Source: a phage
Length of the DNA: 64,000 bases
Strand: one strand, 5' to 3'
Sequence record: PZ452598.1
The translations under genes and the position numbers were made by a program. The notes under the pieces are model-generated. The model was not told the origin of the DNA. It saw only the letters and a list, made by a program, of their open reading frames with translations, and did not search any database. Positions 1,136-58,704 of the stretch are shown here, one piece after another; positions within the stretch are counted from its first letter, which is position 1, and every line of letters starts with the position of its first letter.

Positions 1136-1169
1136 TTTCTAATCTCCGTAATTCTGTATCAGTAGTTGA

Positions 1170-1208
1170 TAGTTGTATAGTACCACAGTATGCTTTGGTT
1201 GTAAACCG
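1170..1208 (-). promoter_or_regulatory. early-type promoter (sigma70-like, -35 GTTTAC at 1201-1206) driving motA
   Basis: Minus-strand GTTTAC, 17-nt spacer, GGTACTATAC -10-like element; same cassette recurs upstream of other early genes. Confidence 0.5.
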
Positions 1209-1224
1209 TTTTGTGAAAAAATTT

Positions 1225-1257
1225 TTAAAATAAAAAAGGGAGAGCCTCGGCTCTCCC
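1225..1257 (-). terminator. intrinsic terminator: 8-bp GC-rich hairpin followed by U-run on minus-strand RNA
   Basis: GGGAGAGC-CGAG-GCUCUCCC then UUUUUUAUUUU on the transcribed strand, between gene 52 cluster and motA promoter. Confidence 0.6.
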
Positions 1258-1262
1258 TAAAA

Positions 1263-1412
1263 TTACTGCATGACTGTGATAACTGTCATGATAACACGTT
1301 GAATTCCGAACGCAAGAAGACCTCCTGCTACGGCTGGAACAACGCCTAAACCCGCCAGTAAAATGCTACCAGATACTAATGCAGCGCTTGTAATACCAAT
1401 GAATGGACTCAT
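1263..1412 (-). CDS. small hydrophobic membrane peptide (49 aa)
   Basis: Manual translation MSPFIGITSAALVSGSILLAGLGVVPAVAGG...; ATGA overlap with gene 52 stop; below the 60-aa ORF-track threshold. Confidence 0.5.
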   Translation of the reverse strand: MSPFIGITSAALVSGSILLAGLGVVPAVAGGLLAFGIQRVIMTVITVMQ

Positions 1413-2737
1413 TTGATTTCCTCTAAATCTTTGGTGTATTCAGTAACTACATCAGTAGTTTTCCAATATTCGTTTTCTTCTTTTTTAGCTTTAGCTTCTT
1501 CAGCAAGTTTCTTTGCTTCATCGGAAGTCATATGAAAAATATTCATTCCAACTAGTTTATCAACATAAGAAGAATACATATCGATTTTCGAAAGTTCTTC
1601 GGTCAGTTCTTTACGAGTTTTACCCTGTACAACAATTTCACCTGAAATTACTTTCTTAATGAAATGTGCTTTGGCAAAGGCTAAACGAAAAGCTGACTCA
1701 GTTTCTTTAATTTTGTTATCAATTCGTTTTTGGACATAAGTTTTACGAACTTCAACAAAGTCTTTAATTAAATCAACTACGTTATCGTAAACTTGCAGCT
1801 TTCCTTTCTCATTAATAACCGTAATATTCTGGGAACGACGCTCAATCAGTCCGAAGTCTTTCATAATTTTTGCATGGCGTTCTTCTTCGTTATCGCTCAA
1901 AGAATATTCTTTGCGGAATTTAACTTTGAAGCCAAAACCATGCTCACCACAAGCATCATCCCATGTAATGAAGCCTTTATCTTCAAGTGGGTCTAAGATT
2001 TTACTCACATAAGTTTCACGATCATACTTATACGGAATCTCAGTGATATGCATTTGAGTTCGTGAAGTAAACTTATATGTTCCACGAATTTCATATTGCC
2101 CATCAATTTCAACGACTTCACCACGAAATTCTGGGAATTCTACTTTCGGTTTAGTTACTTTCTTTCCTTGAAGAGCTTGCAGTACAGCTTTCTTGACAGA
2201 AGAAACACTATGAGGAAGAATGTAAGTTGCATAACCAGTTGCAATACCGGAAACGCCATTAAGAAGAACAGTAGGAATAATAGGCAAATAGAAAGCAGGC
2301 GGAATGTGTTCTTTATCTTGATGTACCGGAGCATATTCAGTATCTTTATATACGTTATAGAAATTTTTACTTACACGAGCAAAAATATAACGACTTGCCG
2401 CTGCCTTTTGGACAGTACGAGAACCAAAGTTTCCTTGACCATCTAACAGAGGAAAGTTATTATTCCAAGTATTAGCCATCAAAGCACCTGCGTCTTGTGC
2501 AGAGTTTTCACCATGATGATATCCAAGGTCCGCTACACCACCTGCAATAGAAGCGAGTTTGTGAAACTTATCTTTATTTCCTCGTGCCAAATCAAGAGCT
2601 CGAGCAATAACAAATCGTTGAACTGGCTTAAATCCATCAATCATATTTGGGATAGCACGATTTTCAACCGTGTACATAGCATAAGCCAATGCTTCATTAT
2701 CAATGATACTTTTTAAATCGCGATTATTCAGTTGCAT
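1409..2737 (-). CDS. 52: DNA topoisomerase II medium subunit gp52 (GyrA-like breakage-reunion subunit, 442 aa)
   Basis: 442-aa ORF; length and sequence match recalled T4 gp52; partners with gp39/gp60 elsewhere in window. Confidence 0.9.
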   Translation of the reverse strand: MQLNNRDLKSIIDNEALAYAMYTVENRAIPNMIDGFKPVQRFVIARALDLARGNKDKFHKLASIAGGVADLGYHHGENSAQDAGALMANTWNNNFPLLDGQGNFGSRTVQKAAASRYIFARVSKNFYNVYKDTEYAPVHQDKEHIPPAFYLPIIPTVLLNGVSGIATGYATYILPHSVSSVKKAVLQALQGKKVTKPKVEFPEFRGEVVEIDGQYEIRGTYKFTSRTQMHITEIPYKYDRETYVSKILDPLEDKGFITWDDACGEHGFGFKVKFRKEYSLSDNEEERHAKIMKDFGLIERRSQNITVINEKGKLQVYDNVVDLIKDFVEVRKTYVQKRIDNKIKETESAFRLAFAKAHFIKKVISGEIVVQGKTRKELTEELSKIDMYSSYVDKLVGMNIFHMTSDEAKKLAEEAKAKKEENEYWKTTDVVTEYTKDLEEIK

Positions 2738-2741
2738 AAAT

Positions 2742-2882
2742 TTACCATACTAGTGAATGTAGTGCCATAATAACATCAGAAATGAAAAGCACGACTTGAA
2801 TTAATCCGAACATTACTCCGTAATATAGTGCTACCAATAAAGCAGCAAGGGCTAATGAATAGCCCAAGATTTTCTTAATCAT
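2742..2882 (-). CDS. small membrane peptide (46 aa)
   Basis: Manual translation MIKKILGYSLALAALLVALYYGVMFGLIQVV...; start overlaps stop of the ac-like ORF. Confidence 0.45.
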   Translation of the reverse strand: MIKKILGYSLALAALLVALYYGVMFGLIQVVLFISDVIMALHSLVW

Positions 2883-4183: not shown

Positions 4184-4636
4184 AGTAAACGTTTAATACA
4201 TCAATCATTAAAACGATTGGGAATATACTCAAAACTATTAGTATTATAACTACATTCCATATAGCTTTAATAATCTTTTTCATTTTCTGTTCCTCCATAG
4301 TTGATAGGGTAATAGTACCACGGAAGAACAGTCTTGTAAACAACTTTTTTAAAAATATTCGTAATAAATGTGAATACCAACTACTACCGCTGAAACCTGT
4401 GCAACCCACCACGCACAAGCAATAAGTACAGAATTCAAAATTTTCATAATAACCTCATTACAAAAGTAAATGTTAAACAAATTACTGGAATACTAATTAA
4501 CCAAACAAAACACCACCATAATGAACTCATAGTTCAATCTCAGCGATTTTCATTTTATTCTCCAAATCCGTATCAGTAGTTGATAGTTGTATAGTACCAC
4601 GGTCCTTGTGGTATGTAAACTGTTTTGTGAAATTTT

Positions 4637-5249: not shown

Positions 5250-5275
5250 TAAAACAAAAGGGCCGAAGCCCTTTA
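5250..5275 (-). terminator. UUCG-tetraloop hairpin followed by U-rich tract (terminator-like)
   Basis: AAAGGGC-UUCG-GCCCUUU then UUGUUUU on minus-strand RNA, between the 64-aa ORF and denB. Confidence 0.45.
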
Positions 5276-5277
5276 TT

Positions 5278-5472
5278 TTACTTGAATTGTGCAATTCTTT
5301 TCTCTAGACATTCAGCATAAGATTTCATTGAGATGAACTGCGAAAGTAGCAGTTCTTGCTCAACTGCGCTAACTGTTAGAAACTTTGCGCTTTCTAAAAA
5401 TTTGCTCAGTGCATTAATTTTGAGCATTAATTGATCGTATTCTTCTTTTACTCGTGCTTGATAACCTAACAT
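5278..5472 (-). CDS. hypothetical helical protein (64 aa) lying where rIIB would be expected
   Basis: ORF track; preceded by TAAGGAAAATT-ATG translation initiation region; flanked on both sides by GGGCUUCGGCCC hairpins. Confidence 0.55.
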   Translation of the reverse strand: MLGYQARVKEEYDQLMLKINALSKFLESAKFLTVSAVEQELLLSQFISMKSYAECLEKRIAQFK

Positions 5473-5500
5473 AATTTTCCTTAGTTAAGGGCCGAAGCCC

Positions 5501-6928
5501 TTATTTAAATTGTTCAGTAACGTCTTCAACTACTTCATATTGGCAGGTACGCATTTTAGCATCGTTGTAATCAATCGGAATTGATACTACATCGCGAGGA
5601 TGAACTTTAACTTTTACAACTCGGCTGGTTGAACTACCAAAGTGACGAATATAAGATTTAGAACACACATGCAAACCACGAGAACAAGTTTGTGTATCAT
5701 CGTCATTCACACGAGTACGTGGCATTTTAACTACTTTACCCGGACTGTTATCAAAGGTGTTTGAGTGACAGTCAAAGTAATTGCTGCGAACTACTTTCCA
5801 AGCATAGAAGTAACCATCTTCTGTAATTTCAATATCGTTTGCTACCAAGAAATCAAAGAGTCGAGATACCGCTTTTTGGCTTGGGTTTTCCAACAGATTT
5901 TCCAAGAACGGAAAATAAAATTCAAAGTTTTCGCCTTTTTCCATCGAGTCAAGAATACGATCAACCAAACCAGACCGCAATTCAATATTTTGATAGAACA
6001 AGCTTCCACCTTCAATTCGAACATCGCCGGAAATATATTTTTCAACAGCACGACGAACATTAATTTTTTGTGCCGCTTCTTCCAACTTATCCGCTACAAG
6101 CAGATTAAGAATTTCCTGGAAGTTTGAATGAGTATTAGGAGTTGCGTTATAAGTTACGCCATCAACAGTAATTGAAATGAATTTTTTAGATGCATTCCAA
6201 ATAATGTCAGATTTAGCAACTGGAGCAATAACTGCATCGCTATTAACTTTAACTGTAATATCACCGCTAATAGTCATCAAAATCCGGAAAATAATCATTT
6301 CGCGGTCAAGACCATTAATGATAGCCAAATCTTTGAACGGTCGCATGATATAAGAAACTTCATAAGCAAAGTTTCTAAAGTCTTTTTCTTCAACTGGAAC
6401 TACGATTTCAATACCAGTTTTATCATCTGGACCCATTTCTTTTACGAATGTAGGTTTAATCTGTGGACCATCACCATCCATGTAAGCTACATAACCACGA
6501 ATTTCACCTTTATGATACGAAGTAATACTAAACGTATCAGTATAACTAAACGGAGATTTAGAACCTAAACCAAATCCGCCAATAAAGTCATTAGATTCAG
6601 CTTTAGATGAACTGAAGTATGAATTATACAACCCAGGAGAATTATCATCACCTTGAATATCAAAATCACTCATACCCGGACCAAAATCTCGACAAACAAA
6701 TCGTGGGTCTAAACGTCCAGGAACTTGTATGATAAATTTTTCAGGATTTCCATTAAGTGCATGAGCATCAATCATGTTAGTAATCAATTCACGGACTACT
6801 GCGCGAATCTTGTTTGTATACAAATCAGATGACAGAATTTTAAATACTTTAGGAGATGCTGTGATGCTAAATGCTTTTGATTTAGAACCATTACCAAGAA
6901 TTGTTTCTTTTTCAGTGGTGATAATCAT
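5501..6928 (-). CDS. rII-locus protein (475 aa): rIIA-like N-terminal GHKL ATPase domain; atypical length, possible in-frame rIIA-rIIB fusion
   Basis: GHKL motifs [26 protein letters not shown] in first ~125 aa; sits at the rIIA position next to rIIA.1 and gene 60 but is about 250 aa shorter than canonical rIIA. Confidence 0.7.
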
Positions 6929-7165: not shown

Positions 7166-7199
7166 TAATTATACCACATCCTTGTGGTAAAGTAAACTA
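7166..7199 (-). promoter_or_regulatory. early promoter (-35 GTTTAC 7192-7197, -10 TATAAT 7168-7173) for rIIA.1 and the rII ORF
   Basis: Consensus GTTTAC, 17-nt spacer, G-TATAAT on minus strand. Confidence 0.6.
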
Positions 7200-10059: not shown

Positions 10060-10125
10060 TTATCCTCGTTTGGTTTCGGGAATATTATACTCCGGTAATC
10101 ATAAAGCTAAAGGCCCGAAGGCCTT

Positions 10126-10386
10126 TTATTTAAAACGAATAGTTGAATCCTTAAAGAACAGCCCAGAACATACTGTTCCTTCTACTTTCTGCCCGGTAGG
10201 TCCAATAGCACGAAATCCAGTATGCTGGAAATCATTTTCAGAGCAACCGAACCAATTATATCCAGTGATTTCAATATTAGTAAAACCACTTGAAGACAAA
10301 ACTTTGGTTGCATTATCAGCATCAGTACATCCTATTAAAGACACTGCTAATACTAATGCTGCAATAGAACGATTAATATATTTCAT
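10126..10386 (-). CDS. putative lipoprotein (86 aa)
   Basis: Signal peptide with lipobox LIGC; ORF track. Confidence 0.6.
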   Translation of the reverse strand: MKYINRSIAALVLAVSLIGCTDADNATKVLSSSGFTNIEITGYNWFGCSENDFQHTGFRAIGPTGQKVEGTVCSGLFFKDSTIRFK

Positions 10387-11208: not shown

Positions 11209-11378
11209 TACAATTTCCTCATTAATTGAACAGTGGAGCGATACGTTTCAGAAGAGTATCAACACCTTTAGCGAATTTTCCATTTTATTCTCCAAGTTGT
11301 TTTCTGTATCAGTAGTTGATATTGATATAGTACCATAATCAACTACTGATGTATATAGTTTTATGAAAAATTTAAACT

Positions 11379-12385: not shown

Positions 12386-12886
12386 TTAGTTTAAGGTAAT
12401 AAAGCCTTTTAGTTCGGCATAGGATTTACGGAACATTACTTGATGCCCGCCAATGATAACTTGGTCATCTGGTACTTCGTATACAGCAAGATAAAATCCT
12501 TTCGAAGCTAATTCTTCACGCTCTTCTCGTGTGAACCATTTCATCATATCATATTCGCTAGCAAAAGCAAAATGATAAAGAGCTACAAACCATCCGGGAA
12601 TATGATATTCTACTCCAACATAATCTTTCTTGAACTTAGTATTAATTACGATATTAGCATTTTTAACTAATAGTTTGTCTTCGTGCGGCACAGGAATTCT
12701 TTTATTATCATTACTATGATGCATAAAATTAGGTCTGTCATAACCTACATGTAATAACCACTCTTCACTCCATGAATCTATTATACTTCTATACGGCGTT
12801 ATTTGAACACAAAGATCTCGGCGTATTGTTATAGCGTCTTCATAATTAAGAATACTAAACGATGATTCAACACGATAAATTTTCAT
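12386..12886 (-). CDS. hypothetical protein (about 166 aa from Met at 12884-12886)
   Basis: ORF track 12386..12925; start moved to Met downstream of promoter with GAGGA SD. Confidence 0.55.
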   Translation of the reverse strand: MKIYRVESSFSILNYEDAITIRRDLCVQITPYRSIIDSWSEEWLLHVGYDRPNFMHHSNDNKRIPVPHEDKLLVKNANIVINTKFKKDYVGVEYHIPGWFVALYHFAFASEYDMMKWFTREEREELASKGFYLAVYEVPDDQVIIGGHQVMFRKSYAELKGFITLN

Positions 12887-12907
12887 TTTATTATCCTCAG
12901 TAGCTAT

Positions 12908-12945
12908 GGTGTTATAGTACCACAACTAACCGAGGAAGTAAACAA
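12908..12945 (-). promoter_or_regulatory. early promoter (-35 GTTTAC 12938-12943)
   Basis: GTTTAC, 17 nt, GGTACTATAA on minus strand. Confidence 0.5.
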
Positions 12946-18941: not shown

Positions 18942-19413
18942 TCGTTTTACCTAAAACAATAGTAGGAGCATCGTCAAATTTATGAATTTTTAGCAAATTT
19001 GGATTTAAATTATTCCATAAAGAGGTAATAAAATATGATAGCGCACTTTCGTCCGTAATTATAAATTTATTTCCTTTATCTATTTTCCAATCATATATTG
19101 AATCATATGAATAGAAGGATAACGGTTTATTATTATAATATGCTTCAGCAACATCAATATAGTTAGATTTAGTAAATGCTTGAATTGCCATAAATGGAGA
19201 ATTTTGTACAGTTTCAATAATTCCGATCTTTTTAAGTTTTATTTCAACATCTTCTGGAATTGGCATTGAAATAAAATCTTCTACTAGATACATATTATTG
19301 TCATATCTTTTATCAATCATTACTGCTACAGTAATTGGAACATCCTTGACAAACGCCATACTAATACTATTGATAGACATTTCAAACAAAATTGCTTCCA
19401 TAATTTTCCTCAA
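18916..19413 (-). CDS. hypothetical protein (161-165 aa), mrh position
   Basis: ORF track; position between modB and soc. Confidence 0.5.
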
Positions 19414-19751
19414 TCACAAGATGTAGATGAACAACTAGAATCACAAGAACTTCCACATGAATCACCTGCCCATACATGAACAGGAACATTAGTATCATAT
19501 GAATCAGAACTAGACTGTGTATTCTGTGTGTTAGATGATGTAGTAGGTGTTGACCAGCGCCAAGGATTTTTATAATATTCTTGGGCTTCTTCATAAGTCA
19601 TAGTAACTGCTTCTACTGTTCCATCTCCCATATAAACATATTCAACTACAGTTAAAGGAAGGTAGTCATTTGAAATAGGAACTACACCTTCCCCAGGAGT
19701 TGTAGAGAAAAAATCCGTAAAGAAACTTTTAAACCAATTAAAGATAAACAT
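19410..19751 (-). CDS. hypothetical protein (113 aa) with Ser/Cys-rich C-terminus
   Basis: ORF track; C-terminal [18 protein letters not shown]. Confidence 0.5.
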
Positions 19752-19981: not shown

Positions 19982-20015
19982 CTATTATACCATACTCATT
20001 TTGGAAAGTAAACCA
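19982..20015 (-). promoter_or_regulatory. early promoter (-35 GTTTAC 20008-20013, -10 TATAAT 19984-19989)
   Basis: Perfect GTTTAC, 17 nt, GGTATAAT on minus strand just downstream of the soc terminator. Confidence 0.6.
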
Positions 20016-20021
20016 TTTAAA

Positions 20022-20050
20022 TGAAAAAAGGACTCCCGAAGGAGTCCTTG
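20022..20050 (-). terminator. intrinsic terminator downstream of soc
   Basis: AAGGACUCC-UUCG-GGAGUCCUU hairpin followed by UUUUUU on minus-strand RNA. Confidence 0.65.
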
Positions 20051-24483: not shown

Positions 24484-24776
24484 TATTCACCTACCACTTC
24501 AGCGATGATATTTTTGTTATTAAAGTTTTTATCGCAATACAGAACATAATTATACTGCATTACACCACCAGACTTAAGCTGTTTTTGCACTTCAGCTTTC
24601 ATTTCAGGACGATCACGCTTAACGATATTCATAATATCTGCTTCAATTTGAGTTTCAACCTCAGTCTGATCCGCAGTCATAGACCATTCGCACAAATCTT
24701 TATCATAACCTGCCATAGCAGGCTGAGCAGCACAAGAAGCTAAAGCAAAAATTGTAGCAAAGATGAATTTTTTCAT
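24483..24776 (-). CDS. sp: Spackle-like periplasmic protein (97 aa)
   Basis: Signal peptide MKKFIFATIFALASCAAQPAMA; 97 aa at T4 sp position. Confidence 0.7.
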   Translation of the reverse strand: MKKFIFATIFALASCAAQPAMAGYDKDLCEWSMTADQTEVETQIEADIMNIVKRDRPEMKAEVQKQLKSGGVMQYNYVLYCDKNFNNKNIIAEVVGE

Positions 24777-24799
24777 GATAATCTCCTCAGTAGTTTATG

Positions 24800-24836
24800 T
24801 TTATATAGTATCTCAATTTCCAACAAAAGTAAACAG
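24800..24836 (-). promoter_or_regulatory. early promoter (-35 GTTTAC 24829-24834)
   Basis: GTTTAC, 17 nt, TACTATATA on minus strand upstream of sp. Confidence 0.5.
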
Positions 24837-31749: not shown

Positions 31750-31771
31750 ATCCGTATCAGTAGTTGATAGT

Positions 31772-31908: not shown

Positions 31909-31921
31909 TAGATTTATTCTA

Positions 31922-34618: not shown

Positions 34619-34696
34619 AGATATTCCTTAGTTTATAGCCCGAGTTATTAGGCTCTTGATATATTATACTCCAAATAAGGGGCCGAAGCCCCTTGC

Positions 34697-35065
34697 TTAA
34701 TTACCAATCGTATATTTAGGAACGAGCTTCCATTCATGTTTTTGTTTAAAAGAAATAACTCGGAAGTTATTAGTTAAATCTTTCATAAAAGTTCTTTGAC
34801 CAGGAACGATTTCAATTAGTCCCCAATCTTCTAATAGCCATGCAATCGAATCACGACGAACTTCATCTTCTTCTGTCATTTCAACTTGACGACCATCCAT
34901 ACGAAGCATTTCTTTAAAATGAACGATATAGTATAGTCCTTTTTTCTGAAGAATATGACAGGACTGATATAGAACTTTATCTTTATTATTAGCAATTCCC
35001 ATACGAGTCAAAGTTTCTTTTACTTTCAGAAAATCTTCAGGTTTTTTAAGAGTAATTTCAATCAT
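34697..35065 (-). CDS. regA: translational repressor RegA (122 aa)
   Basis: 122-aa ORF between 62 and 43 as in T4. Confidence 0.8.
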   Translation of the reverse strand: MIEITLKKPEDFLKVKETLTRMGIANNKDKVLYQSCHILQKKGLYYIVHFKEMLRMDGRQVEMTEEDEVRRDSIAWLLEDWGLIEIVPGQRTFMKDLTNNFRVISFKQKHEWKLVPKYTIGN

Positions 35066-36606: not shown

Positions 36607-36642
36607 GTTTTAGTGTAAATTATAAAGGGCCGAAGCCCTCTA

Positions 36643-37329
36643 TTAAAAATCGTGGGTAGAATCAGCTTCAAGAGCTACCACATAATTCGCGTGTTCACCT
36701 TCAAATTTAGCAGCACCTTGTTTACCTTTTGCCCAAAGCAGAAGTTTATAATTTCCTGGTTGCATTTTCATATTTGCCATATTGATAATGAAATTAAATG
36801 TATTTTCACCATCATAATCACCAAGAGTCAAAGAATATTTAACACGGGTCAGAGCAGAATCTTCTACTTTATTAAAACCGTTAATTACGATTTTACCTTC
36901 TTTTACCGTGATAGCAATTGTATCAATTTGCAGACCACGAGATACACGCAACAGCTGTTGAAGGTCTTCAGCTTTAATTTCAGTAACAGCAGATGCTACC
37001 GGGAATGGAATTGGTTTATTAGGAGCAACTACTGTACTCGGATCGGCTGCTGGCCAAAAAATTGTTGAGCGGGCATCAGCAATTTTAATATTTCCATCTT
37101 CTGACTGGGAAATTTCTGCATCATCATTAACTAAAGACAGAATACCGAGAAAACCGTTCAAATCGTAAATTGCTACATCAAAATCAATAACGTCAGAAAT
37201 ATTTGCTTCCGCATAAGTTGTACCATTAACTGCGCGAGTCATAATAAATTGACCGGATTTAAGCATAATACCAGAGTTAATAGTAGCGAAATTTTTAAGC
37301 AGAGCAGTAGTATCTTTAGACAGTTTCAT
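36643..37329 (-). CDS. 45: sliding clamp gp45 (228 aa)
   Basis: 228-aa ORF; synteny with 44/62. Confidence 0.85.
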   Translation of the reverse strand: MKLSKDTTALLKNFATINSGIMLKSGQFIMTRAVNGTTYAEANISDVIDFDVAIYDLNGFLGILSLVNDDAEISQSEDGNIKIADARSTIFWPAADPSTVVAPNKPIPFPVASAVTEIKAEDLQQLLRVSRGLQIDTIAITVKEGKIVINGFNKVEDSALTRVKYSLTLGDYDGENTFNFIINMANMKMQPGNYKLLLWAKGKQGAAKFEGEHANYVVALEADSTHDF

Positions 37330-41173: not shown

Positions 41174-41349
41174 ATATCAAGAACCGTCATTGAAATGCAA
41201 AATAAAATTATTGAAATAAATCCATCTGGAGTGCTAAAGAACCCAATCCAACATGCTCTAGTGAATAGATAAAATGCAAGAAAAAGTATCACATATCCAA
41301 GAAATATCATTATATCAAACTCCGTATAAAGCTAAAGGGCCGAAGCCCT

Positions 41350-42552
41350 TTATTTTGTAATAATGTCAAACTGTTCTTTAAAGCAGAAGCTTGAATCTTG
41401 ATGCTGATACAAAAATTCATATGCTTTTTCTCGCTCACGGTCATAAAGAGCTCGGTCAGATGACAGTTCTTTAATACGTTCAAATGTTGATTCCATATCA
41501 TTTTCATCAAACCAAATGATACCGCTATCATGCGAGGTCAAAGGAGTATTATCAACACGGAATTTTAAATTTTCGCCAGTAGATTTCCAAAATACCGGAA
41601 TTGTTCCACATGCACCAAGCTCGAGATGAGTATATTCGAGTGAGCGTTGTAAGTATTTCTGGTTAAGTTTACTCAACTGATATCCAAAGCCAGATTTACT
41701 CATTCGTTCAAGCATTTCACTATTAATATAACAATCTAGGATTTGTGCCGGTTGATTCGGCGCGAGATTCATTTTATCAATCTCACGATTACCGTAATAT
41801 TCATACGGAATACCTTTTTCCTTAATTGCAATAAAAGCAGGGGAACGTTCCAGACCTTCCATTACAGTGGATTTACCAGCAGGTTTTAAGAATTTTTCAT
41901 GAAAATCAAACATCTGGTAAAAACCTTTCCATGTAGTCGTACGACCAATCCAACGGTTGATATTCATGTTAATTTCAGAAACATCTTTCCAATAAGTTGA
42001 CCGAACCTTCACAATATCCATAGGAGGCTGAAAATTATATACTGTCGGTGCTTCTTCAATATCATCAAACAGAGAAACAGTTTCTGGATACCATTCTTTC
42101 ATCAGAACTTTATTAAAATCACCATTATCAGAATGGCTAAAAATAACATCAGCTCGACGAACAGTTTCTTCTAATCCCAAATTTCGACGCAAAGAAAGAA
42201 CAGAATGATCATGCTGATAAACTACAACACGAATAGAAGGTTTAATATTATCTAAAAGTTTTTTATAGTTATTAATCGTAGCTTCTTGAACGGAAGTAGC
42301 AGGAACAGAATTAATAATTAGAATATCACAATCATTTACTAGCTTAAGTGCTTTATCGTATTCTTTAGCTAAAATAACTGGAATTGAAAATGATTTGTGG
42401 TCATGAGAACTTGTACGAGTAAATGATTTATCTTTAGCATAAACCAAAGTTACTTCATGACCATTTTTAATAAACCAATCACGTTGCTCGAGTGAGAATT
42501 TTGTTACACCACAACCTTCAAGACCTCGAGCCATAAAAATGCAAATACGCAT
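41350..42552 (-). CDS. agt: DNA alpha-glucosyltransferase (400 aa)
   Basis: 400-aa ORF at T4 alpha-gt position. Confidence 0.8.
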   Translation of the reverse strand: MRICIFMARGLEGCGVTKFSLEQRDWFIKNGHEVTLVYAKDKSFTRTSSHDHKSFSIPVILAKEYDKALKLVNDCDILIINSVPATSVQEATINNYKKLLDNIKPSIRVVVYQHDHSVLSLRRNLGLEETVRRADVIFSHSDNGDFNKVLMKEWYPETVSLFDDIEEAPTVYNFQPPMDIVKVRSTYWKDVSEINMNINRWIGRTTTWKGFYQMFDFHEKFLKPAGKSTVMEGLERSPAFIAIKEKGIPYEYYGNREIDKMNLAPNQPAQILDCYINSEMLERMSKSGFGYQLSKLNQKYLQRSLEYTHLELGACGTIPVFWKSTGENLKFRVDNTPLTSHDSGIIWFDENDMESTFERIKELSSDRALYDREREKAYEFLYQHQDSSFCFKEQFDIITK

Positions 42553-45510: not shown

Positions 45511-45562
45511 ACATTATCCTCAATTACGTTAAAATTTTATTATCCAAAAAGGGCCGAAGCCC

Positions 45563-45763
45563 TTAGCTAAACTTTTTGGCACCCTTCCAGCCTTCGTACA
45601 TCATTGCGACTGACAATGACAAAGCTCCTTCACATGCTGCATACTTATTATTCCAGAACCAATTTAGAAAAACTTCATCCTCAATACCGTTGTGTTTCAT
45701 GTTCTGGAAAAATTTGGCGCGTTCTTCAGCAATTCGCTGCGATAATTTAGATTCAGGATTCAT
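45563..45763 (-). CDS. hypothetical protein (66 aa)
   Basis: ORF track. Confidence 0.45.
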   Translation of the reverse strand: MNPESKLSQRIAEERAKFFQNMKHNGIEDEVFLNWFWNNKYAACEGALSLSVAMMYEGWKGAKKFS

Positions 45764-46371: not shown

Positions 46372-46399
46372 ATCAATTCCTCAAAGGTAATTCATATGT

Positions 46400-46432
46400 T
46401 AATAATACCACGGTTTGAACTTGTTGTAAACA
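46400..46432 (-). promoter_or_regulatory. early promoter (-35 GTTTAC 46426-46431)
   Basis: GTTTAC, 17 nt, GGTATTAT on minus strand. Confidence 0.5.
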
Positions 46433-46504
46433 ACTTTGTGAAAAATATTTTAGGGAATGATAAGAAAGGAACGATAGCTTAGAATGGTAATATACAGAAT
46501 GTGA

Positions 46505-48264: not shown

Positions 48265-51111
48265 TGGTGCTTAACCCTATGCATGATTTCTTTATTTTTA
48301 CCGAGATTAAATCCGCGTTCGTTCGGATTTCCCAAATAACCACATGTTCTTCTTATGGTATTCATCTTTTTAGGATCAGTTTCTCCACAAATAGAACAAA
48401 CAAATCCGTTTTCAGTAGGAGTCATTTCATGGGTACTTCCACATGTAAAACATTTATCTACTGGCATATTAACACCAAAATAATCTAAATGCTGTGCAGC
48501 ATAATCCCACACGGCCTCAAGACCTTTTAAGTTATTTTTCATATCAGGAAGTTCAACATAAGAAATGTGACCACCTGTCGCAATGAAATGATATGGCGCT
48601 TCACGAGAAATCTTTTCAAACGGAGTAATATTTTCTTCTACTGAAACATGGAAACTGTTAGTGTACCAGCCTTTATCGGTAACATCTTTTACGCTTCCAT
48701 ATTTTTCTGTATCGAGTTTACAGAAGCGATAACACAGGTTTTCAGCAGGAGTCGAATATAAACTAAAAGCAAATCCGGTTCTTTCAGTCCACTGTTTAAG
48801 ATGAGCATTCATTTTAGTTAAAATTTCTCGTCCAATATCACGACCGACAAGAATATTCAATTCGTGAATACCAATGTATCCTAAAGACACTGAACTTCTA
48901 CCGTTTTTAAATAACTCAATTATGTCGTCATCAGGTTTAAGACGAACCCCGAATGCACCTTCTTGGTAAAGAATAGGAGCAACAGTAGCTTTAACTCCTT
49001 TTAAGGAACTAATTCTACACATCAAAGCTTCAAAACATAAATCCATTCGTTCATTAAATAGCTCAACAAATTTCTGTTCATTGAACTGTGTTCCAATATA
49101 AGAATCTAACGCGATGCGAGGAAGATTCAGTGTTACAACACCAAGATTATTGCGTCCATCAAGAATTTCATTGCCAGTCGAATCTTTCCATACGCTCAAG
49201 AAACTACGGCAACCCATCGGAGAAACAGGAACAGATGAACCAGTGATAGCTTTATTGTTCTTAGCTGAAATAATATCAGGATACATCCTTTTGCTTGCGC
49301 ACTCTAGAGCAAGCTGTTTAATATCATAGTTCGGATCGTCTTTATAAAGATTAACACCTTCTTCAACGAACATAACAAGCTTAGGGAAAATAGGAGTTAT
49401 CCCATCACGACCAAGACCTTTAATACGATTTTTCAGAATTGCTTTCTGAATCATTCGTTCAGTCCAGTCAGTTCCCGTACCAAATGTAATTGTTACAAAA
49501 GGAGTCTGTCCGTTTGAACTGAATAACGTGTTCACTTCATCAATGTGTTCAGTAGAGTTCGCTACTTCTCTACCCGTTTATATGAAACAATGTAATTTGG
49601 ATAATTGTCATCTAAACACAAATCTTTAATACGACTTGGGTGGAGTTTTAAATCTTTAGCAGCATCCACAAATGATTTATAGATATTGTCATTTATTTTA
49701 ACATATTCTGGGACGGGATGAATTGTTATTTTTATATCTATAACATTTGGATGATTACTAACCTGTTCTTCAGAGCATTTAAGAAATTTTGCAGCTGATT
49801 TAAAACTTCTAAATTTATTTCCGGATTTTAAAGCTATAGAAACAGTCTTTTTAGCCGTTCTACTACCAATATTATTTTTAACATGAGCTTCACTTCTACT
49901 ATTATTTTTATAATGCTCAATCAATTTCTCTCGTATCTTATCTTTATGTTTTAAAGATAAGATTTTACCTTTATGGGCATTACTAAGTTTTTGCTTATGT
50001 TCTTCTGAATCCGGATATTTGTTAAATTTATATCCACCTATAGATTTATTAAGAATAAATTCGTTATTAAAATATTTCCTAATAAGCATTTCTTCATGTT
50101 TAAGGGCCGATTCATAAGAATCAAAAACTTGAAGAATTATCCACTTAGCTTTATAATCTTTAAGCTTTTCTTTAACAAGCTTAGATGACGAATTGTATTC
50201 TTTCCAATTTGTATCTTTACCATATATAGTTTTGAATTTTTTAAAACCTATATAAAAAGACTTATCAGGAAATCTTACCATATAGGTAAATGCTACAGAA
50301 TTGGCAATTTTTAAGCTTTTTCTTAATTTCCATTTCATCGTTTCACCTCGTATTCATATTTATACGAGGATAAACAGCTGCATGTCACCATGCAGTTCAG
50401 ACTATATCTTCAACTCTTAGAGTTGTCTGCCGTTTCGGGTCGCTTGACCCTACTCCCTTACATTCATCAGGGATAGTCGTTGGGCATTTACAGCTACTGC
50501 TGATTTAGCAACGGATTGTCTCAGTGAGAGTTTCCCGTTTTAGGCAGATTTTACATGAGCTTGACTTACGTTAACTCATAAGCTTGGAATGCATCGTATA
50601 CGTCTTTTTCTGTTTTAGATTGAGCATAATTCAACGCATCAGCGATTTGCCATTTTTCTGCATCCTCAATATGTTTTGCATAGGTGCGTTTAACATAAGG
50701 AGAAAGTACTTTATCTACATTCGCAAAAGTCGTTCCGCCGTATTGGTGAGAAGCAACTTGCGCAGTAATTTGTGCCATAATTGCAGTAGCAACTCCAATT
50801 GATTTAGGAGTTTCAATCTGCGCATTACCAAGCTTAAATCCGTTTTCAAGCATTCCTTTTAAATCTACTAAACAGCAATTAGTAAATGGAAGAGCAGGGG
50901 AATAATCAATATCATGCACGTGAATAATTCCGCTTTCATGCGCTTTCATAATAAAAGACGGGACCATATTTTTGGCAATGTGTTTAGACACAATACCAGC
51001 CATAAGGTCCCGTTGAGTTGGAAAAACACGAGAATCTTTATTAGCATTCTCGTTTAAAAGGTCTTTATTAGTTTTATGAATTAATCCTTCAATTTCTTTT
51101 TCAATTGTCAT
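48261..51111 (-). CDS. nrdD: anaerobic ribonucleotide reductase NrdD, split by a group I intron (exon 1 about 50566..51111, exon 2 about 48261..49540)
   Basis: Two collinear ORFs (181 + 424 aa, about 605 aa total) separated by about 1 kb containing I-TevII; C-terminal glycyl-radical region in exon 2; splice sites not mapped exactly. Confidence 0.85.
49562..50338 (-). CDS. I-TevII: intron-encoded GIY-YIG homing endonuclease (258 aa)
   Basis: GIY-YIG-type N-terminus (FTYMVRF...FYIGFKKF); located inside nrdD intron. Confidence 0.85.
   Translation of the reverse strand: MKWKLRKSLKIANSVAFTYMVRFPDKSFYIGFKKFKTIYGKDTNWKEYNSSSKLVKEKLKDYKAKWIILQVFDSYESALKHEEMLIRKYFNNEFILNKSIGGYKFNKYPDSEEHKQKLSNAHKGKILSLKHKDKIREKLIEHYKNNSRSEAHVKNNIGSRTAKKTVSIALKSGNKFRSFKSAAKFLKCSEEQVSNHPNVIDIKITIHPVPEYVKINDNIYKSFVDAAKDLKLHPSRIKDLCLDDNYPNYIVSYKRVEK
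50357..50364 (-). promoter_or_regulatory. late promoter TATAAATA inside the intron, upstream of I-TevII
   Basis: TATAAATA on minus strand about 20 nt upstream of I-TevII ATG. Confidence 0.55.
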
Positions 51112-53662: not shown

Positions 53663-54585
53663 TTCAATACCTCAATAGCATTACGTAAACCATTTGCTTT
53701 GGCGGTTAAATCCTTAAGAACTTTAGTATGCTCTTCAATCTGTTTTTCAACTTCAATCAAACGGGTACTGAGATATTCGCGTTCTTCTTTCATAGTATCA
53801 TTCCCATGATTGGGCTTTGGCGTAGGTTTAAATTTATTAGGGTCCTTTAACTTAATAACAACTTTAGTTTCAAACAGTGAAAGACCATAATTCGTATTAT
53901 CATCAAAGGATTCAACTACGTCCATTTTAGACAATAACGTACGAAGATTATAAGTCAAAGAACGAATCGTTTTATTATGTTTATTAGCTTCACATGGTTT
54001 CATATATGGAAGATTTTTATATATTTCATGCGGAGCACAAACAATAATTAACAATTCAAATGGTCCATTCTGTGATGATGGAATGAATTTAGCCGTAACC
54101 CAATCTTTTACATTTACATTAATAGTACGATCATCGCCATGACAAAACAGTCTACGAGAATGCTTAAAAAGCATATTCACATTATTATTAAATTCGTGTG
54201 AAAACTCACTGGCAAATTTTTCTTTACTATCTTTAGAAAACCATTCTTCTAAATAAGTTCTTTTCACGTCGTTAATAATATTAAATGTAACAACATTATC
54301 ATTTGATACATTAGTCTCAATGTAGCTTGGATACATAAATTTTTTAACATTATTAACAGCTATCACAGAAGATAGTAATCGGGAACGTTTGAACCACTCG
54401 AGCAAAGAACCAAGAGAATGTGAATACGCATTTTGTGTATCTTTACAAATATGGTTTTCCCATCCAATATAGTCTAAAAAATCACGAAGAATATTATTGA
54501 TTACTTCTCTATGTCCTTTCTGATAATCACGATGTTTAGTAATAAGACTGTCAAAATAATCAATATAATGTTTACGAGTTTTCAT
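53659..54585 (-). CDS. hypothetical protein (308 aa), coiled-coil C-terminus; paralog family member 1
   Basis: ORF track; C-terminal heptad-like tail. Confidence 0.6.
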   Translation of the reverse strand: MKTRKHYIDYFDSLITKHRDYQKGHREVINNILRDFLDYIGWENHICKDTQNAYSHSLGSLLEWFKRSRLLSSVIAVNNVKKFMYPSYIETNVSNDNVVTFNIINDVKRTYLEEWFSKDSKEKFASEFSHEFNNNVNMLFKHSRRLFCHGDDRTINVNVKDWVTAKFIPSSQNGPFELLIIVCAPHEIYKNLPYMKPCEANKHNKTIRSLTYNLRTLLSKMDVVESFDDNTNYGLSLFETKVVIKLKDPNKFKPTPKPNHGNDTMKEEREYLSTRLIEVEKQIEEHTKVLKDLTAKANGLRNAIEVLK

Positions 54586-54639
54586 GTTCTTCTCACTTGG
54601 TTAATGATTTATACTCCGAGCCATCCTTGGCTTTAAATT

Positions 54640-55692
54640 TTACTTAATTAACTGCAAAGCTTGTTCTAGACGATCAAGACGATTAACGGATTCTTCCCAA
54701 ATCTTTTTAGCCTGCTCATATTCTTTCTGCGCTTTATTAGAAATTTCTAGAACTTCTTTATAAGCTTTTTCTAGTGCAATAACTTCTGGACGAATTTCTA
54801 TCGGTTCAGGTGAATCATCAAGACATTCCATTAGTTCCTCAAGGGTAGTTTCTTCTTTAGGAGTATTCACAATTTCATCACATTTTTGTTGGTAAATTTC
54901 TTTACTAGTAGGTGAATAAGCACATTTCACTTCACGAAGGCTAATTACGAGTTTATATCCTTCCCAACCGCATATATTCTTAAAAGGATATGTATGAATA
55001 TTTTCTACTGTTTCCATACAAAGTAATGCGGTCTCTAATTGACGAGTTATAGTGCTAGCAATTGAGAAAAATTTATTAATATTCTTTTGGTTAGTTTCTG
55101 GTGTAAAAAATCCATAATTCACAAAAATAGATACTTTATTTTTATCAAGTTCATATTCTTTTATGATAATCATATCAGAAGCCAAAGGATGAATTTGACG
55201 ATAATCGCCATAACATAATTTAGAAGCTGATTTTAGAATTTGCTTCTTGAAAAGTCTGAAATTACTAATCCAACGACGAGTAAAAATATTCTCAGGGTCT
55301 TCTTTATTATTGAGATGATAAGAATTAACATCACCGAACCAATTATATCCTACTACATCTTTAGTTCGTTTAATTTCTTTCCCAAAATTACCAAGAATAT
55401 CCCGATTAACCAAATATGAAAGAAGACGAGACTCTTTAAAGGTTTTCTTGATAACATCTTTATCTACACGGCTAGAAATTTTACGAATTTCATGAATAAA
55501 TTTAGTAGAAGAAACAATACTTGCATCAACACTATTGAGCCACTGATTGATAATAGAAAGAACGCTATTTTGGCCAAACATCGGTATAGCTTTATCATCA
55601 ATAACGCTATTGAATGATTTGATATATTCGTTACGAGTCATATTAATCTCCTCAGTAGAAAGTAAGAACATTATACCACATCCTTGTGGCAA
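54640..55692 (-). CDS. hypothetical protein (350 aa), paralog family member 2
   Basis: Shares FRLFKKQILKSASKL-type segment and coiled-coil tail with neighbours. Confidence 0.6.
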   Translation of the reverse strand: MPQGCGIMFLLSTEEINMTRNEYIKSFNSVIDDKAIPMFGQNSVLSIINQWLNSVDASIVSSTKFIHEIRKISSRVDKDVIKKTFKESRLLSYLVNRDILGNFGKEIKRTKDVVGYNWFGDVNSYHLNNKEDPENIFTRRWISNFRLFKKQILKSASKLCYGDYRQIHPLASDMIIIKEYELDKNKVSIFVNYGFFTPETNQKNINKFFSIASTITRQLETALLCMETVENIHTYPFKNICGWEGYKLVISLREVKCAYSPTSKEIYQQKCDEIVNTPKEETTLEELMECLDDSPEPIEIRPEVIALEKAYKEVLEISNKAQKEYEQAKKIWEESVNRLDRLEQALQLIK

Positions 55693-55702
55693 AGTAAACT
55701 AG
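55668..55702 (-). promoter_or_regulatory. early promoter (-35 GTTTAC 55695-55700, -10 TATAAT 55670-55675)
   Basis: Consensus early promoter on minus strand. Confidence 0.55.
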
Positions 55703-56721
55703 TTCAGTGCATTTAGTGCATTGTTCAGTTTAGAACGTTGCTTTGTCAGATTTTGAACCCTTGACTGAGCTTGTTCTAACGCCTTTTCAGCTTCTAGCAC
55801 TTCATTGGTCGCTTTAACTAATTCAGCATCTACTGCCTTAAGAGACTTCTCAATCGCATCCGCGTGCCATTTTTCAACAGGTTTAAGACTTGGATTTTCA
55901 ACAGGAAGAAAATTCACTTTATTGAATTTCCATGCATCTTTATTACCTGAGCTATACATCCAAAATTTAGGATCGTTTGATAAGTAATTAGATAAATTTA
56001 AGTTATCTTGCACTTCTTGCTTTTTCTCTTGTGTGACTTCGTCCTTTCTCAAAAATTCATATTTAAATGAAACGATCATATCAAGTTCATATGATGTTGT
56101 ATCTAACTTAAATCGTTCAAAACGAGGTAAAATCTTAGATTGAACAGCAGCAACAACATCCATATACTTAAATGCTTCTGTCAACTGCGATTTAAGGCAT
56201 TCGCAAATTGAAAGAGAATTTTTTGTATTAGGTTTAAAGCTAATTCGTGCAGTTCTATTATTTTCTTTTAACGGTCTTACTTCCATCTGAAGAGTATAAC
56301 CATCAAATTTCAGATTCTTTAAGTTAATGTCAGAGCCTTTTAATCGACTAGCAGTAGACAAAATTTGCTTTAATTGTCTACGGAACAGAGCAATAAATCT
56401 CCATTCAATACGATAATGATTTGGATTGAAAAATCCAGATGATAAATCGACCTTACTTTGACCAACGCCTTGAACAAATAGAGGATTTTTATAATCAATA
56501 GTTTTACAGAAATCGGTGAGCTGTTCACGAGCAGTCATTTGAGTAATATACCCTGCTTTACTAAAATTACGCACCCATTCACTGCTATTCGTATACTTAA
56601 AGTGATGAATAACACGATTAACTTTATCAGGGTCTAAATTATTTTCACACAAAAATGTCATAACATCACGAGTATAGCTGGCATTACGAACCATATCTTC
56701 AATTTGAGAACGAGTTTTCAT
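55699..56721 (-). CDS. hypothetical protein (340 aa), paralog family member 3
   Basis: Segment ALFRRQLKQILSTASRL and coiled-coil tail. Confidence 0.6.
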   Translation of the reverse strand: MKTRSQIEDMVRNASYTRDVMTFLCENNLDPDKVNRVIHHFKYTNSSEWVRNFSKAGYITQMTAREQLTDFCKTIDYKNPLFVQGVGQSKVDLSSGFFNPNHYRIEWRFIALFRRQLKQILSTASRLKGSDINLKNLKFDGYTLQMEVRPLKENNRTARISFKPNTKNSLSICECLKSQLTEAFKYMDVVAAVQSKILPRFERFKLDTTSYELDMIVSFKYEFLRKDEVTQEKKQEVQDNLNLSNYLSNDPKFWMYSSGNKDAWKFNKVNFLPVENPSLKPVEKWHADAIEKSLKAVDAELVKATNEVLEAEKALEQAQSRVQNLTKQRSKLNNALNALN

Positions 56722-56729
56722 GGTGTTCC

Positions 56730-57644
56730 TTAAGATTTAAGTAAATCAACAATTTTAATTAACTTTTCACGCTCAGATTTAGCTTTACTACTCAATCCAG
56801 ATAGTCTGAAAATTTCATCATCATATTGTTGAATAGAAATATTCAGCTCTTCAATTTGCTTATTAAAATAATCAATTTGTTCAGAATGTTTTTCGTTACT
56901 ACGAACTGGTACAGGTTTTGTAGGCAATTTAGTTGAACTGGATTCATTCGGGCGATAAATTAAAATGCAATTTGAACCAATCGGGCATTTAGCACCAGAT
57001 GAATATTCTAACGTTCCAGCTTCTTTTAAAACTTCAAAAGCTAAACAGAGATGATGCCCCATATTAACATAATCAGTAGAGCGAGCTCTGATGTAATAAT
57101 CATCTCCACGAGTGCTAAATTTAAAGCATTTAAGGTCTTCTGTATTATTAGTTTTAAAAATCATTTGTTTATCTAGACCTTTAGCCAATCGAGCACCTAA
57201 TGCTAATAATCGTCGTTGATTTTCCCACAAATCTGCGATCATTTGGTCAAATGATAATTTCGGCATTAGCCGACCATAAAGGTCATATCCTTTATTATAA
57301 TTGCGAAGGATTTCACTCGCATTAATACGAGACAACGCTCCAATTTTATTAAGGGCTTTCATAATACGATTAGATAAACTCATTCCAGACCCGTTTGTTC
57401 GCTGTAAATGTTTTTCTAATCCAAATCCAATATCAACTTTAAATTTATCTAAAATTTCAGCATGAACATCTCTGTCAATAACATTCAAATCCAAAGTTGG
57501 GTTAAATCTATGAAAAAATTTATCTGGCTCTCCACGACGTAAAACAGTCCATTCATTCATCATTTTTTTATTAACTAAAGATTTAATTACTGCGTTGACA
57601 TTATTAATTACTACTGACATATTTTCCTCACTCAATTTTACCAA
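56730..57644 (-). CDS. hypothetical protein (304 aa), paralog family member 4
   Basis: Segment LWENQRRLLALGARLAKG and coiled-coil tail. Confidence 0.6.
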   Translation of the reverse strand: MVKLSEENMSVVINNVNAVIKSLVNKKMMNEWTVLRRGEPDKFFHRFNPTLDLNVIDRDVHAEILDKFKVDIGFGLEKHLQRTNGSGMSLSNRIMKALNKIGALSRINASEILRNYNKGYDLYGRLMPKLSFDQMIADLWENQRRLLALGARLAKGLDKQMIFKTNNTEDLKCFKFSTRGDDYYIRARSTDYVNMGHHLCLAFEVLKEAGTLEYSSGAKCPIGSNCILIYRPNESSSTKLPTKPVPVRSNEKHSEQIDYFNKQIEELNISIQQYDDEIFRLSGLSSKAKSEREKLIKIVDLLKS

Positions 57645-58029
57645 TTACGCGGAATAAGATTGAACAGACTATATAAGTACCACATATAGATTGAACTAAT
57701 GCCATTCCAAAGAACCAAACAATATTATCAAACCATGTCTGTTTTACGTCGAAAGGACGTAAACTTACAGTAATATTATCACCTTTTTCTATTGAAGAAT
57801 ACATCTCTGGGGAAATATATTCACTAAATCTATAACCGTCTTTGAGTTCATATACAGCAATAAACGATAAACTAGACCCCTTTCCTTGAGTTCCTGTAAG
57901 GGTATTAACTACAGTAACATCATAATCTTTATAATGCATATAATCATTAATTGCGTAATAACCATATGCAATTACTATACATAAACAACATATCAATAAA
58001 TTCAATCTTTTAATTATCAACTGTTTCAT
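57628..58029 (-). CDS. membrane protein (133 aa)
   Basis: Two hydrophobic helices at N and C termini. Confidence 0.55.
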   Translation of the reverse strand: MKQLIIKRLNLLICCLCIVIAYGYYAINDYMHYKDYDVTVVNTLTGTQGKGSSLSFIAVYELKDGYRFSEYISPEMYSSIEKGDNITVSLRPFDVKQTWFDNIVWFFGMALVQSICGTYIVCSILFRVIGKIE

Positions 58030-58084
58030 AATAATCTCAATTAAAAGGGCTTAGAACCATTATACCATCCTTGGTATAAAGCGG

Positions 58085-58612
58085 TTATGCGAGTACCGTA
58101 TTTAACCGTTCTTCAAACTTCCGAAGAGTGTTCTGGCGTTCAGCTCTTTGCTTTTTGTAAGTTTCAATACGCTCTGAAATGAGAGTGTATCGTTCATTTA
58201 CTGATTCTTTCATAAAATCAGGAATTTCACGAGAAGCTTTAATCTCGTCAAATTTATCAATAACAGCTTGCTCTTCAGCAATTAAGTTATCATACATCAA
58301 AATATCTTTCTTGATGAACTCAATATCTTCTTGAGTTACACGAGATAATTTAGATGCTTTATCCTTTTTGTACTGTTCGTTAGTATCACGAGACCAGTGT
58401 AATGTACGATTTTTATTCGTATTCTTGTAAATTTCTACAATACCAATCTCATCGATAATAACGATCCAATTCCAACGGGATTTGTAAATTTGTCCTCCAT
58501 TAACAGTGATTTCACCTCCGATTGAGATGTCATTAAAGAACTTGCTTTGTGCTTCTGATTTAAATTTACCATCGTTGTAATTTACCAGGTTGAAAATATC
58601 TTTAGCGTTCAT
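58085..58612 (-). CDS. hypothetical protein (about 175 aa from Met at 58610-58612)
   Basis: ORF track 58085..58657; start moved to Met with GGAGGA SD downstream of promoter. Confidence 0.55.
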   Translation of the reverse strand: MNAKDIFNLVNYNDGKFKSEAQSKFFNDISIGGEITVNGGQIYKSRWNWIVIIDEIGIVEIYKNTNKNRTLHWSRDTNEQYKKDKASKLSRVTQEDIEFIKKDILMYDNLIAEEQAVIDKFDEIKASREIPDFMKESVNERYTLISERIETYKKQRAERQNTLRKFEERLNTVLA

Positions 58613-58637
58613 TTTGTGTTCCTCCGTAGTTGATAGT

Positions 58638-58672
58638 TGTATAGTACCACAGCTCAAACGGAAAGTAAACCG
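58638..58672 (-). promoter_or_regulatory. early promoter with conserved leader cassette (-35 GTTTAC 58665-58670)
   Basis: Same GTTTAC...GGTACTATACAACTATCAACTAC module as other copies. Confidence 0.5.
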
Positions 58673-58679
58673 GTAAAAT

Positions 58680-58704
58680 GAAAAAAAGTCTCCCGAAGGA
58701 GACT
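58680..58704 (-). terminator. intrinsic terminator
   Basis: AGUCUCC-UUCG-GGAGACU hairpin followed by UUUUUUU on minus-strand RNA. Confidence 0.65.

Follow-up and report, generated by a model that had tools for sequence, protein, structure and literature searches.

Early promoters and shuffling cassettes of phage T4

The early promoters (Pe) of bacteriophage T4 are textbook knowledge and were reportedly described by Liebig and Rueger, by Wilkens and Rueger, and by Miller et al. in 2003. A block of this already known kind recurs on the minus strand of sequence record PZ452598.1, a stretch of 64,000 nucleotides of phage DNA (hereafter the window), and is compared here with the closest described systems. 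In the literature, T4 early promoters carry GTTTAC at -36 to -31, and the class has been described as an upstream (UP) element, a -35 hexamer, a TGn extension and a -10 hexamer (Hinton 2010). A composite of stem-loop, AT-rich region, early promoter, Shine-Dalgarno (SD) sequence and ATG constitutes the PeSL cassette, and PeSL recombination has been proposed to shuffle small open reading frames (ORFs), and mini-circle junctions have been sequenced for RB49 and phi1 (Arbiol et al. 2010; Comeau et al. 2014). For PST and T4 as a pair, PeSLs follow the consensus TTTACW-N17-TAYWAT (Comeau et al. 2014), and the T4/PST ndd region is itself a published PeSL example, presented as Figure 6A. For general recombination in T4, homology shorter than 50 bp reportedly suffices (Arbiol et al.).

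For the leaders of early transcripts, the closest described elements are the T4 RegB/S1 targets. Their published cleavage consensus is GGAGAAUAAAA, with the general form GGAGRAYARAA (Durand et al. 2006); the same work gives motA as a good RegB substrate, nrdC.8 as moderately cut and motB.2 as cut at a GGAU site. Primer-extension work on the motA, nrdC.8 and mobD.5 leaders has also been reported. Further parallels are the lambdoid morons and the gene cassettes of integrons, which are small accessory genes with their own or acquired expression signals that are gained or lost as units; in the window there is no integrase and no attC-like site, and the promoter sequence itself supplies the homology.

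Identity and anatomy of the repeated block

The window matches T4T and other T4 records with 100% identity across 6 kb and is collinear with AF158101.6 apart from two deletions. By this alignment, it is a phage T4 variant that carries two deletions and differs from the reference strain. The repeated block is very probably a T4 early promoter followed by a short leader and a ribosome-binding site (RBS), together forming a regulatory cassette. All five copies that were noted initially are on the minus strand, ahead of the early genes motA, ndd.6, cef (its leader), imm.1 and nrdC.8 in the T4 annotation. A 32-nt core, GGTACTATACAACTATCAACTACTGATACGGA, is present without mismatch in copies 2 (4567-4598) and 4 (31751-31782) and with one mismatch in copy 1 (1153-1184), and a chance repeat was rejected since 0.00 matches are expected in dinucleotide-shuffled sequence. 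Copies 3 (~11283-11356) and 5 (~58612-58670) are partial. Both have TGGTACTATA, CTATCAACTAC and a GGAG site, and copy 5 matches the block only up to CAACTATCAACTAC, the TGATACGGA part being missing. The initial annotation had reported a block recurring nearly verbatim at five sites: the five sites stand, but the wording suits only copies 1, 2 and 4. An unbiased repeat search of the window recovered the promoter family independently as its top two families, D1 (seven copies) and D2 (six copies), and added copies at 4298-4355, 12906-12943, 24756-24816 and 46388-46445.

Each copy comprises an A/T-rich upstream element, a -35 hexamer, a TGG-extended -10 (TACTAT), a CTATC start-site motif and a GGAG RBS. 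TGG lies immediately 5' of TACTAT in five of five copies (upstream sequence of the type aaaaattttttcacaaaac), and GGAG is placed 7-10 nt ahead of an ATG, again in all five. The -35 is GTTTAC in copies 1, 2, 4 and 5, where 18 nt separate it from TACTAT, equivalent to 17 nt between TTTACW and TACTAT, and it is ATATAC in copy 3. GTTTAC had been given for every copy, followed by a 17-nt gap; copy 3 departs from this and the gap to GGTACTAT is 16 nt, but the figure of 17 nt is right for the distance between TTTACA and TACTAT.

In copy 1, the motA cassette (1133-1258), a terminator hairpin (1258-1237) is followed by an A/T-rich UP element, the -35 GTTTAC (1206-1201), the -10 TACTAT (1182-1177), a predicted +1 A (1170), GGAG (1147-1144) and the motA ATG (1135). 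The ORF after it, which begins MSKVTYIIKASN and lies downstream of gene 52, we take to be MotA. Copy 2, the ndd.6 cassette (4527-4620), has its -35 at 4620-4615, its -10 at 4596-4591, the +1 A at 4584 and a RegB-type site, GGAGAATAAAA, at 4563-4553. Copy 3, the cassette upstream of cef (11248-11356), has ATATAC at 11356-11351, the -10 at 11332-11327 and GGAGAATAAAA at 11293-11283; a perfect 13-bp inverted repeat, with arms at 11350-11338 and 11320-11308, lies on either side of the -10, in agreement with its earlier description as partly palindromic. In copy 4, the imm.1 cassette (31735-31909), the gene 43 terminator (31909-31892) precedes the -35 (31804-31799), the -10 (31780-31775), the +1 A (31768), GGAG (31747-31744) and the imm.1 ATG (31737). 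The leader of copy 4 (31742-31734) also reads ATGAAATGAAAATCGCT, in which a two-codon mini-ORF (ATG AAA TGA) overlaps the imm.1 start codon. Copy 5, the recombinant cassette (58612-58704), consists of a terminator (58704-58687), a -35 (58670-58665), GGAGG (58625) and the nrdC.8 ATG (58612).

A scan of the window for GTTTAC followed after 17-19 nt by TAnnnT returned 17 minus-strand sites, all intergenic and with a perfect -35; in nearly all of them, TGG precedes the -10 and A/T-rich sequence lies upstream. Genes downstream of these sites include rIIA.1, motB, motB.2, srd, modB, mrh.2, sp, dmd, 55.6, nrdC.4 and regB. The five noted copies, together with those of ndd.4, motB.2 and sp, form a sub-family with a TACTAT -10 and a start region ending in ...CTATCAACTAC..., and nine further early promoters in the window are of the TATAAT type; these nine and the three additional sub-family members were missing from the initial list. 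In GenBank X75802, both copy 2 and the ndd.4 copy are annotated as promoters, their -35 and -10 signals coinciding exactly with the same hexamers; the A of CTATC is the last base of the promoter feature and was taken as +1. A scan of IMG/VR with the exact 24-mer gave only 12 stretches on 5 contigs and added nothing.

Compared with the described T4 early promoters, nothing essential differs. The organism and the sites are the same, and the UP element, GTTTAC, 17-nt spacer, TGn and -10 stand ahead of immediate-early genes on the counter-clockwise strand; the five copies are distinguished as a sub-family by TACTAT in place of TATAAT and by a near-identical initial transcribed sequence. Host sigma-70 RNA polymerase would read the UP element, the GTTTAC -35, the TGn-extended -10 in its TACTAT variant and the CTATC start motif, and transcription from the cassettes would start immediately upon infection. 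The earlier proposal that these are early promoters ahead of unrelated early genes, providing coordinated early expression, agrees with both the X75802 annotation and the literature. Cassette anatomy, mosaicism, the breakpoints at cassettes in relatives and the deletion junction inside a cassette of the window are shown by the sequences, whereas the promoter activity of the copies, their cleavage by RegB and the pathway of recombination are taken from the literature or inferred.

The transcribed leader is about 35 nt long, and its folding is no more stable than that of shuffled sequence (z from -1.2 to +0.5). An Rfam scan of the window assigned no family to the promoter leaders, its sole match being the nrdD group I intron. 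A structured RNA leader or known RNA family was rejected on these grounds. The leader ends in the GGAG SD and an A-rich run. Its site is an 11/11 match to the RegB/S1 consensus in copies 2 and 3 (GGAGAATAAAA) and a 10/11 match in copies 4 (GGAGAATGAAA) and 1 (GGAGATTAGAA), and is of the GGAGG type in copy 5. As in RegB/S1 targets, GGAG followed by an A-rich 7-mer lies in the translation-initiation region of early transcripts; the RegB site accounts for only the 3' end of the repeated block. The same block would switch genes on early and mark their mRNAs for early inactivation by RegB with ribosomal protein S1. Both roles, immediate-early transcription and RegB-mediated early inactivation, are established T4 biology.

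Copy 5 and the 4.8-kb deletion

Wild-type T4 has distinct nrdC.8 and mobD.5 promoters, both of which contain the 17-bp sequence CTGTGGTACTATACAAC. In the window, this stretch, identical in the two parental cassettes, lies in copy 5 (58636-58652, minus strand). Upstream of it, copy 5 is of the mobD.5 type (terminator, -35 and spacer), and downstream it is of the nrdC.8 type (leader, GGAGG and ATG). The sequence between the two promoters (AF158101 about 53926-58741), with nrdC.9, nrdC.10, nrdC.11, mobD and mobD.1-mobD.5, is lost. Copy 5 is thus the junction (58632-58652) left when 4.8 kb between the mobD.5 and nrdC.8 promoters was deleted, and the crossover falls within 17 identical bp. An independent deletion of 4.1 kb in phage Shinka also ends, on one side, in the -10 of mobD.5. 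The homologies are too short for k-mer collapse, which makes an assembly artefact unlikely. Neither this junction nor that of the other deletion, in rII, is present in any record of the phage collection.

Mosaic relations among the cassettes

The UP region, spacer, initial transcribed 21 nt and distal leader were compared segment by segment over all promoter pairs. In the UP region, imm.1 is nearest to 55.6 (23/28) and then to motA (21/28). In the spacer, imm.1 matches ndd.4 at 17/18 positions, as rIIA.1 matches nrdC.4. The initial 21 nt are the same in motA, ndd.6 and imm.1 (21/21), and the distal leaders of ndd.6 and imm.1 agree at 19/20 positions. Median identities over all pairs are much lower for each segment (UP 11/28, spacer 7/18, initial 8/21, distal leader 6/20). 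The groupings conflict, in that different segments pair different promoters. Near-identical spacers combined with segment-specific partners argue against convergence and for exchange among cassettes by recombination or gene conversion. This indicates that the copies are probably related by descent and by repeated exchange with one another, and are hence mosaics. The earlier suggestion that the copies serve as sites for homologous recombination is borne out by this mosaicism and by the junction at copy 5.

Stub ORFs and breakpoints in relatives

The 12 nt ATGAAAATCGCT follow both copy 2 and copy 4. After copy 4, they are the start of imm.1 (31737), whose product, MKIAILVIALGLAGC..., has a lipobox. 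After copy 2, they begin an 8-codon stub ORF, MKIAEIEL* (4553-4527), whose TGA overlaps the ndd.6 ATG (4530). The shared start had been recognized initially, but its start codons are at 31737 and 4553 rather than at 31749 and ~4530. It had been read as a promoter and gene 5' end that were duplicated and moved as a module, a reading that comparison with relatives does not support. At copy 2, the alignment of T4 with PST, ECML-134 and T2 extends to the ATG (4551-4560) and is broken there. At this site, PST carries both ORF269 and ORF268, ECML-134 carries ORF268 alone, and T2 carries ORF269 and then the stub. ORF268, intact in PST and ECML-134, has a C-terminus that reads ...NSNEMKIAEIEL*, so the T4 stub corresponds to the last 8 codons of an ORF268-like gene. 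The stub is joined to the copy 2 cassette via AAATG-type microhomology.

At copy 4, a 78-aa gene that begins ATGAAAATTGTT separates the cassette from imm.1 in fPS-65, and RB68 has a different 83-aa gene there and a different distal leader (the intervening genes being g048c or RB68_047). In both phages, imm.1 has its own RBS, GAGGAAATTATTATGAAAATCGCT. Given the extra gene and the separate imm.1 site in relatives, the T4 arrangement is the product of a deletion between two ATGAAAAT starts. The 12 nt shared after copies 2 and 4 are therefore of separate origin, each brought to its cassette by a deletion. Beyond the crossover homology, the two starts share only CGCT, which is CGTT in PST and T2. 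The deletions that placed both starts beside cassettes had their crossovers in short RBS/ATG(AAA) homology. Interpretation of the stub as a duplicated imm.1 5' end was rejected, because the stub is the end of an ORF268-like gene and the imm.1 start is its own.

At copy 3, T2, RB51 and CrRp10 have an 89-aa gene of which T4 lacks 201 bp and retains an out-of-frame remnant, an 11-codon stub ORF (11283-11248). At copy 1, KMB26 has an extra 75-aa gene and then a second early promoter before motA, with the break at ...CTATCAA. The same stub-after-cassette pattern occurs in T2, which is without motB.1 and most of motB.2 (902 bp; T2 ~6750-6800). The motB.2 cassette is retained there with a 10-codon stub, MKIYRVEFIV*, and the join is in GAATTAA microhomology shortly before the motB -35. 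In total, all five copies adjoin insertions, deletions or replacements in close relatives, the relatives having been chosen for a split alignment. The T4 record MZ375356, in which part of the ndd region is deleted, was considered as a natural cassette deletion and dropped, as it is an engineered clone with endpoints (window 4039/4381) outside the cassettes.

In RB69, imm and imm.1 lie between sp and 61.4 (RB69 19011-19723), as opposed to between genes 42 and 43 in T4. Each is preceded by its own TACTAT-type early promoter, and imm.1 follows a TACTAT...CTATCAACTAC cassette. The imm/imm.1 module has changed locus between genera, gene and cassette together.

Comparison with the PeSL model and alternative explanations

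The role of the cassettes as gene-shuffling sites is already published as the PeSL concept. With T4 recombination needing only short homology, the cassettes and the RBS/ATG(AAA) at their 3' edge would serve as crossover points, at which small non-essential early genes would be deleted, inserted or replaced. The AT-rich region, early promoter, SD and ATG described here are as in PeSLs and also stand beside variable small ORFs; the window copies are chimeric or mosaic, and the mini-circles are known from RB49 and phi1. Several observations weigh against this explanation. The -35 of copy 3 is poor (ATATAC). An upstream stem-loop is found at only three of the five copies (copy 1, 1258-1237; copy 4, 31909-31892; copy 5, 58704-58687), copies 2 and 3 being without an adjacent one (copy 2 by scan, copy 3 by eye). 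In relatives, a number of deletions terminate at RBS/ATG sequences with 5-8 bp of microhomology, or within coding DNA, and not in homology between two cassettes. Several junctions found here, at the RBS/ATG or in coding DNA, differ from those of PeSLs, which lie in the AT-rich or -10 portion. The 4.8-kb deletion could in principle be of engineered origin. Finally, a whole-region comparison of T4 with T2, in which 14 indels or replacements were scored against early-promoter -10 positions, showed no enrichment at cassettes over a gene-boundary null (P = 0.32). In three of the 14 (cef leader, motB/motB.2 and imm.1), neither edge is more than 65 bp from an early-promoter -10, and many of the other 11 occur where T4 encodes homing-endonuclease genes; relative to random positions, indels at early promoters are enriched (P about 0.01 per event and 0.0004 per edge). 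Comparative genomics, as proposed initially for rearrangements bounded by the repeats, has located breakpoints at every copy, but without an excess over gene boundaries, and the enrichment relative to random positions was not relied on as main evidence.

These microhomology junctions and the gene-boundary result mean that part of the association between cassettes and indels may reflect the survival of deletions that keep a promoter and initiation region. That the association is mostly of this origin, with deletions arising by microhomology anywhere and only the survivors retaining a promoter and translation-initiation region, is possible but rather unlikely. The junctions at copies 2 and 3 and at the T2 motB.2 stub fit such survivorship, since they use only 4-8 bp (AAATG, AAAA and GAATTAA) and have one end in a gene; the rII deletion of the window also uses a short repeat, of 7 bp and unrelated to cassettes. 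Survivorship does not account well for the 4.8-kb deletion, in which two promoters crossed over at corresponding positions, inside a 17-bp stretch where the cassettes are identical, nor for the independent Shinka deletion that ends in the same mobD.5 -10. The mosaic near-identity at non-consensus spacer positions requires cassette-to-cassette exchange, and mini-circle junctions have been sequenced at PeSLs in RB49 and phi1. Arbiol et al. allowed for a role of a helper protein or a targeted recombinase, but integron-like mobility of the cassettes, driven by a dedicated site-specific recombinase, is extremely improbable here, as the crossovers are scattered over the -10, leader, ATG and coding DNA with no fixed core site, and the reported homology requirement of T4 general recombination (<50 bp) is small.

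Two other explanations concern the similarity of the copies rather than their breakpoints. Separate optimization of each promoter for RNA polymerase, with neither shared descent nor exchange, would draw on the functional constraint on the UP element, -35, TGn, -10 and CTATC, and RB69 early promoters carry a related start-site motif, CCTATCAA, which implies that part of the leader conservation is a general start-site feature. Such convergence is nevertheless highly improbable given spacers identical at 17/18 and distal leaders at 19/20 positions, segments that group different promoters, and a median spacer identity of only 7/18 over all pairs; we know of no consensus at those spacer and distal-leader positions. 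Alternatively, the near-palindromic ATCAACTACTGAT, which contains TATCA-N5-TGATA, could be an operator through which a DNA-binding factor shuts off a subset of promoters. The motA, ndd.6, imm.1 and cef-leader promoters carry it at +1 to +13, and the cef-leader spacer contains a further, inverted copy. All five exact copies of this 13-mer, including the inverted one in the copy 3 spacer, are inside cassettes, and T2, RB51 and CrRp10 have the copy 3 palindrome unchanged, although the flanks have diverged by 7-20%. To our knowledge, no protein binds this element, which counts against an operator. The mechanism of early-promoter shut-off is not completely understood according to reviews (including Hinton 2010), and such a factor, if real, could contribute to this abrupt event. 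However, the full element is present in only 4 of about 18 early promoters of the window, even though shut-off is class-wide, RB69 has a different downstream sequence, and shared descent of the copies can account for the element; an operator is accordingly judged quite improbable, and none of the observations calls for one. Descent with exchange among early-promoter cassettes remains the preferred explanation for the repeated block.

Other features of the window

Among the additional sub-family members, all on the minus strand, the ndd.4 promoter (4283-4341) has its -35 at 4341-4336, its -10 TACTAT at 4317-4312, GGAGG at 4296 and the ATG at 4283. The TACTAT-class motB.2 promoter (12886-12943) has its -10 at 12919, an GGAUAAUAAAA site and the ATG at 12886, and the sp (spackle) promoter of the same class (24776-24834) has its -10 at 24810 and the leader AAACTACTGAGGAG. 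The TATAAT-class early promoters, on the same strand, include those of rIIA.1 (7168-7199) and regB (62630-62690), the latter ahead of an ORF that begins MTINTEVFIRR. From -35 through -10, the rIIA.1 promoter is 31/32 identical to the nrdC.4 early promoter (55670-55701, minus strand); the two diverge completely past the -10 and are another pair that could recombine. The halves of the mrh.2 (20003-20044) and mobD.5 (58660-58701) promoters that contain the terminator and -35 are 88% identical over 42 nt and include UUCG-loop hairpins, and their downstream halves differ in -10 class (TATAAT and TACTAT, respectively).

A second, terminator-like repeat family consists of GGGCC-GAAG-GCCC(TT) hairpins with T-runs (families D3 and D6), located at 5250-5279, 5487-5514, 10102-10131, 34670-34699, 36617-36646, 41327-41356 and 45541-45570. 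These hairpins resemble the GGGC/GCCC motifs at T4 deletion endpoints, as the work of Mosig et al. (1998) is cited by Arbiol et al.

The other deletion of the window removes ~1.69 kb relative to AF158101 (about 168739 through 1522) and joins rIIA to rIIB at 6262-6274, within the short direct repeat CACCG(C)TAATAGT. Just upstream of the junction, rIIA has a 1-nt deletion (CAATTT to CATTT). The two changes together result in a single 475-aa rIIA'-'rIIB fusion ORF (6928-5501, minus strand), and the fusion protein is absent from the protein-to-contig index. The group I intron at 50378-50609 (minus strand; Rfam RF00028, 105 bits) is the known nrdD intron that carries I-TevII.

Biological implications

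The reading made initially from the sequence alone rediscovers the T4 early promoter and the published idea of modular gene shuffling. The additions made here are modest: the stubs as scars, the motA, imm.1 and ndd.6 promoters as mutual mosaics, and the 4.8-kb promoter-promoter deletion. The two stub ORFs of T4 are scars of deletions in genes that close relatives still have, and the 4.8-kb deletion, whose crossover lies in 17 identical bases of two early promoters, is a clean, single-genome case of cassette-to-cassette recombination in T4 itself.

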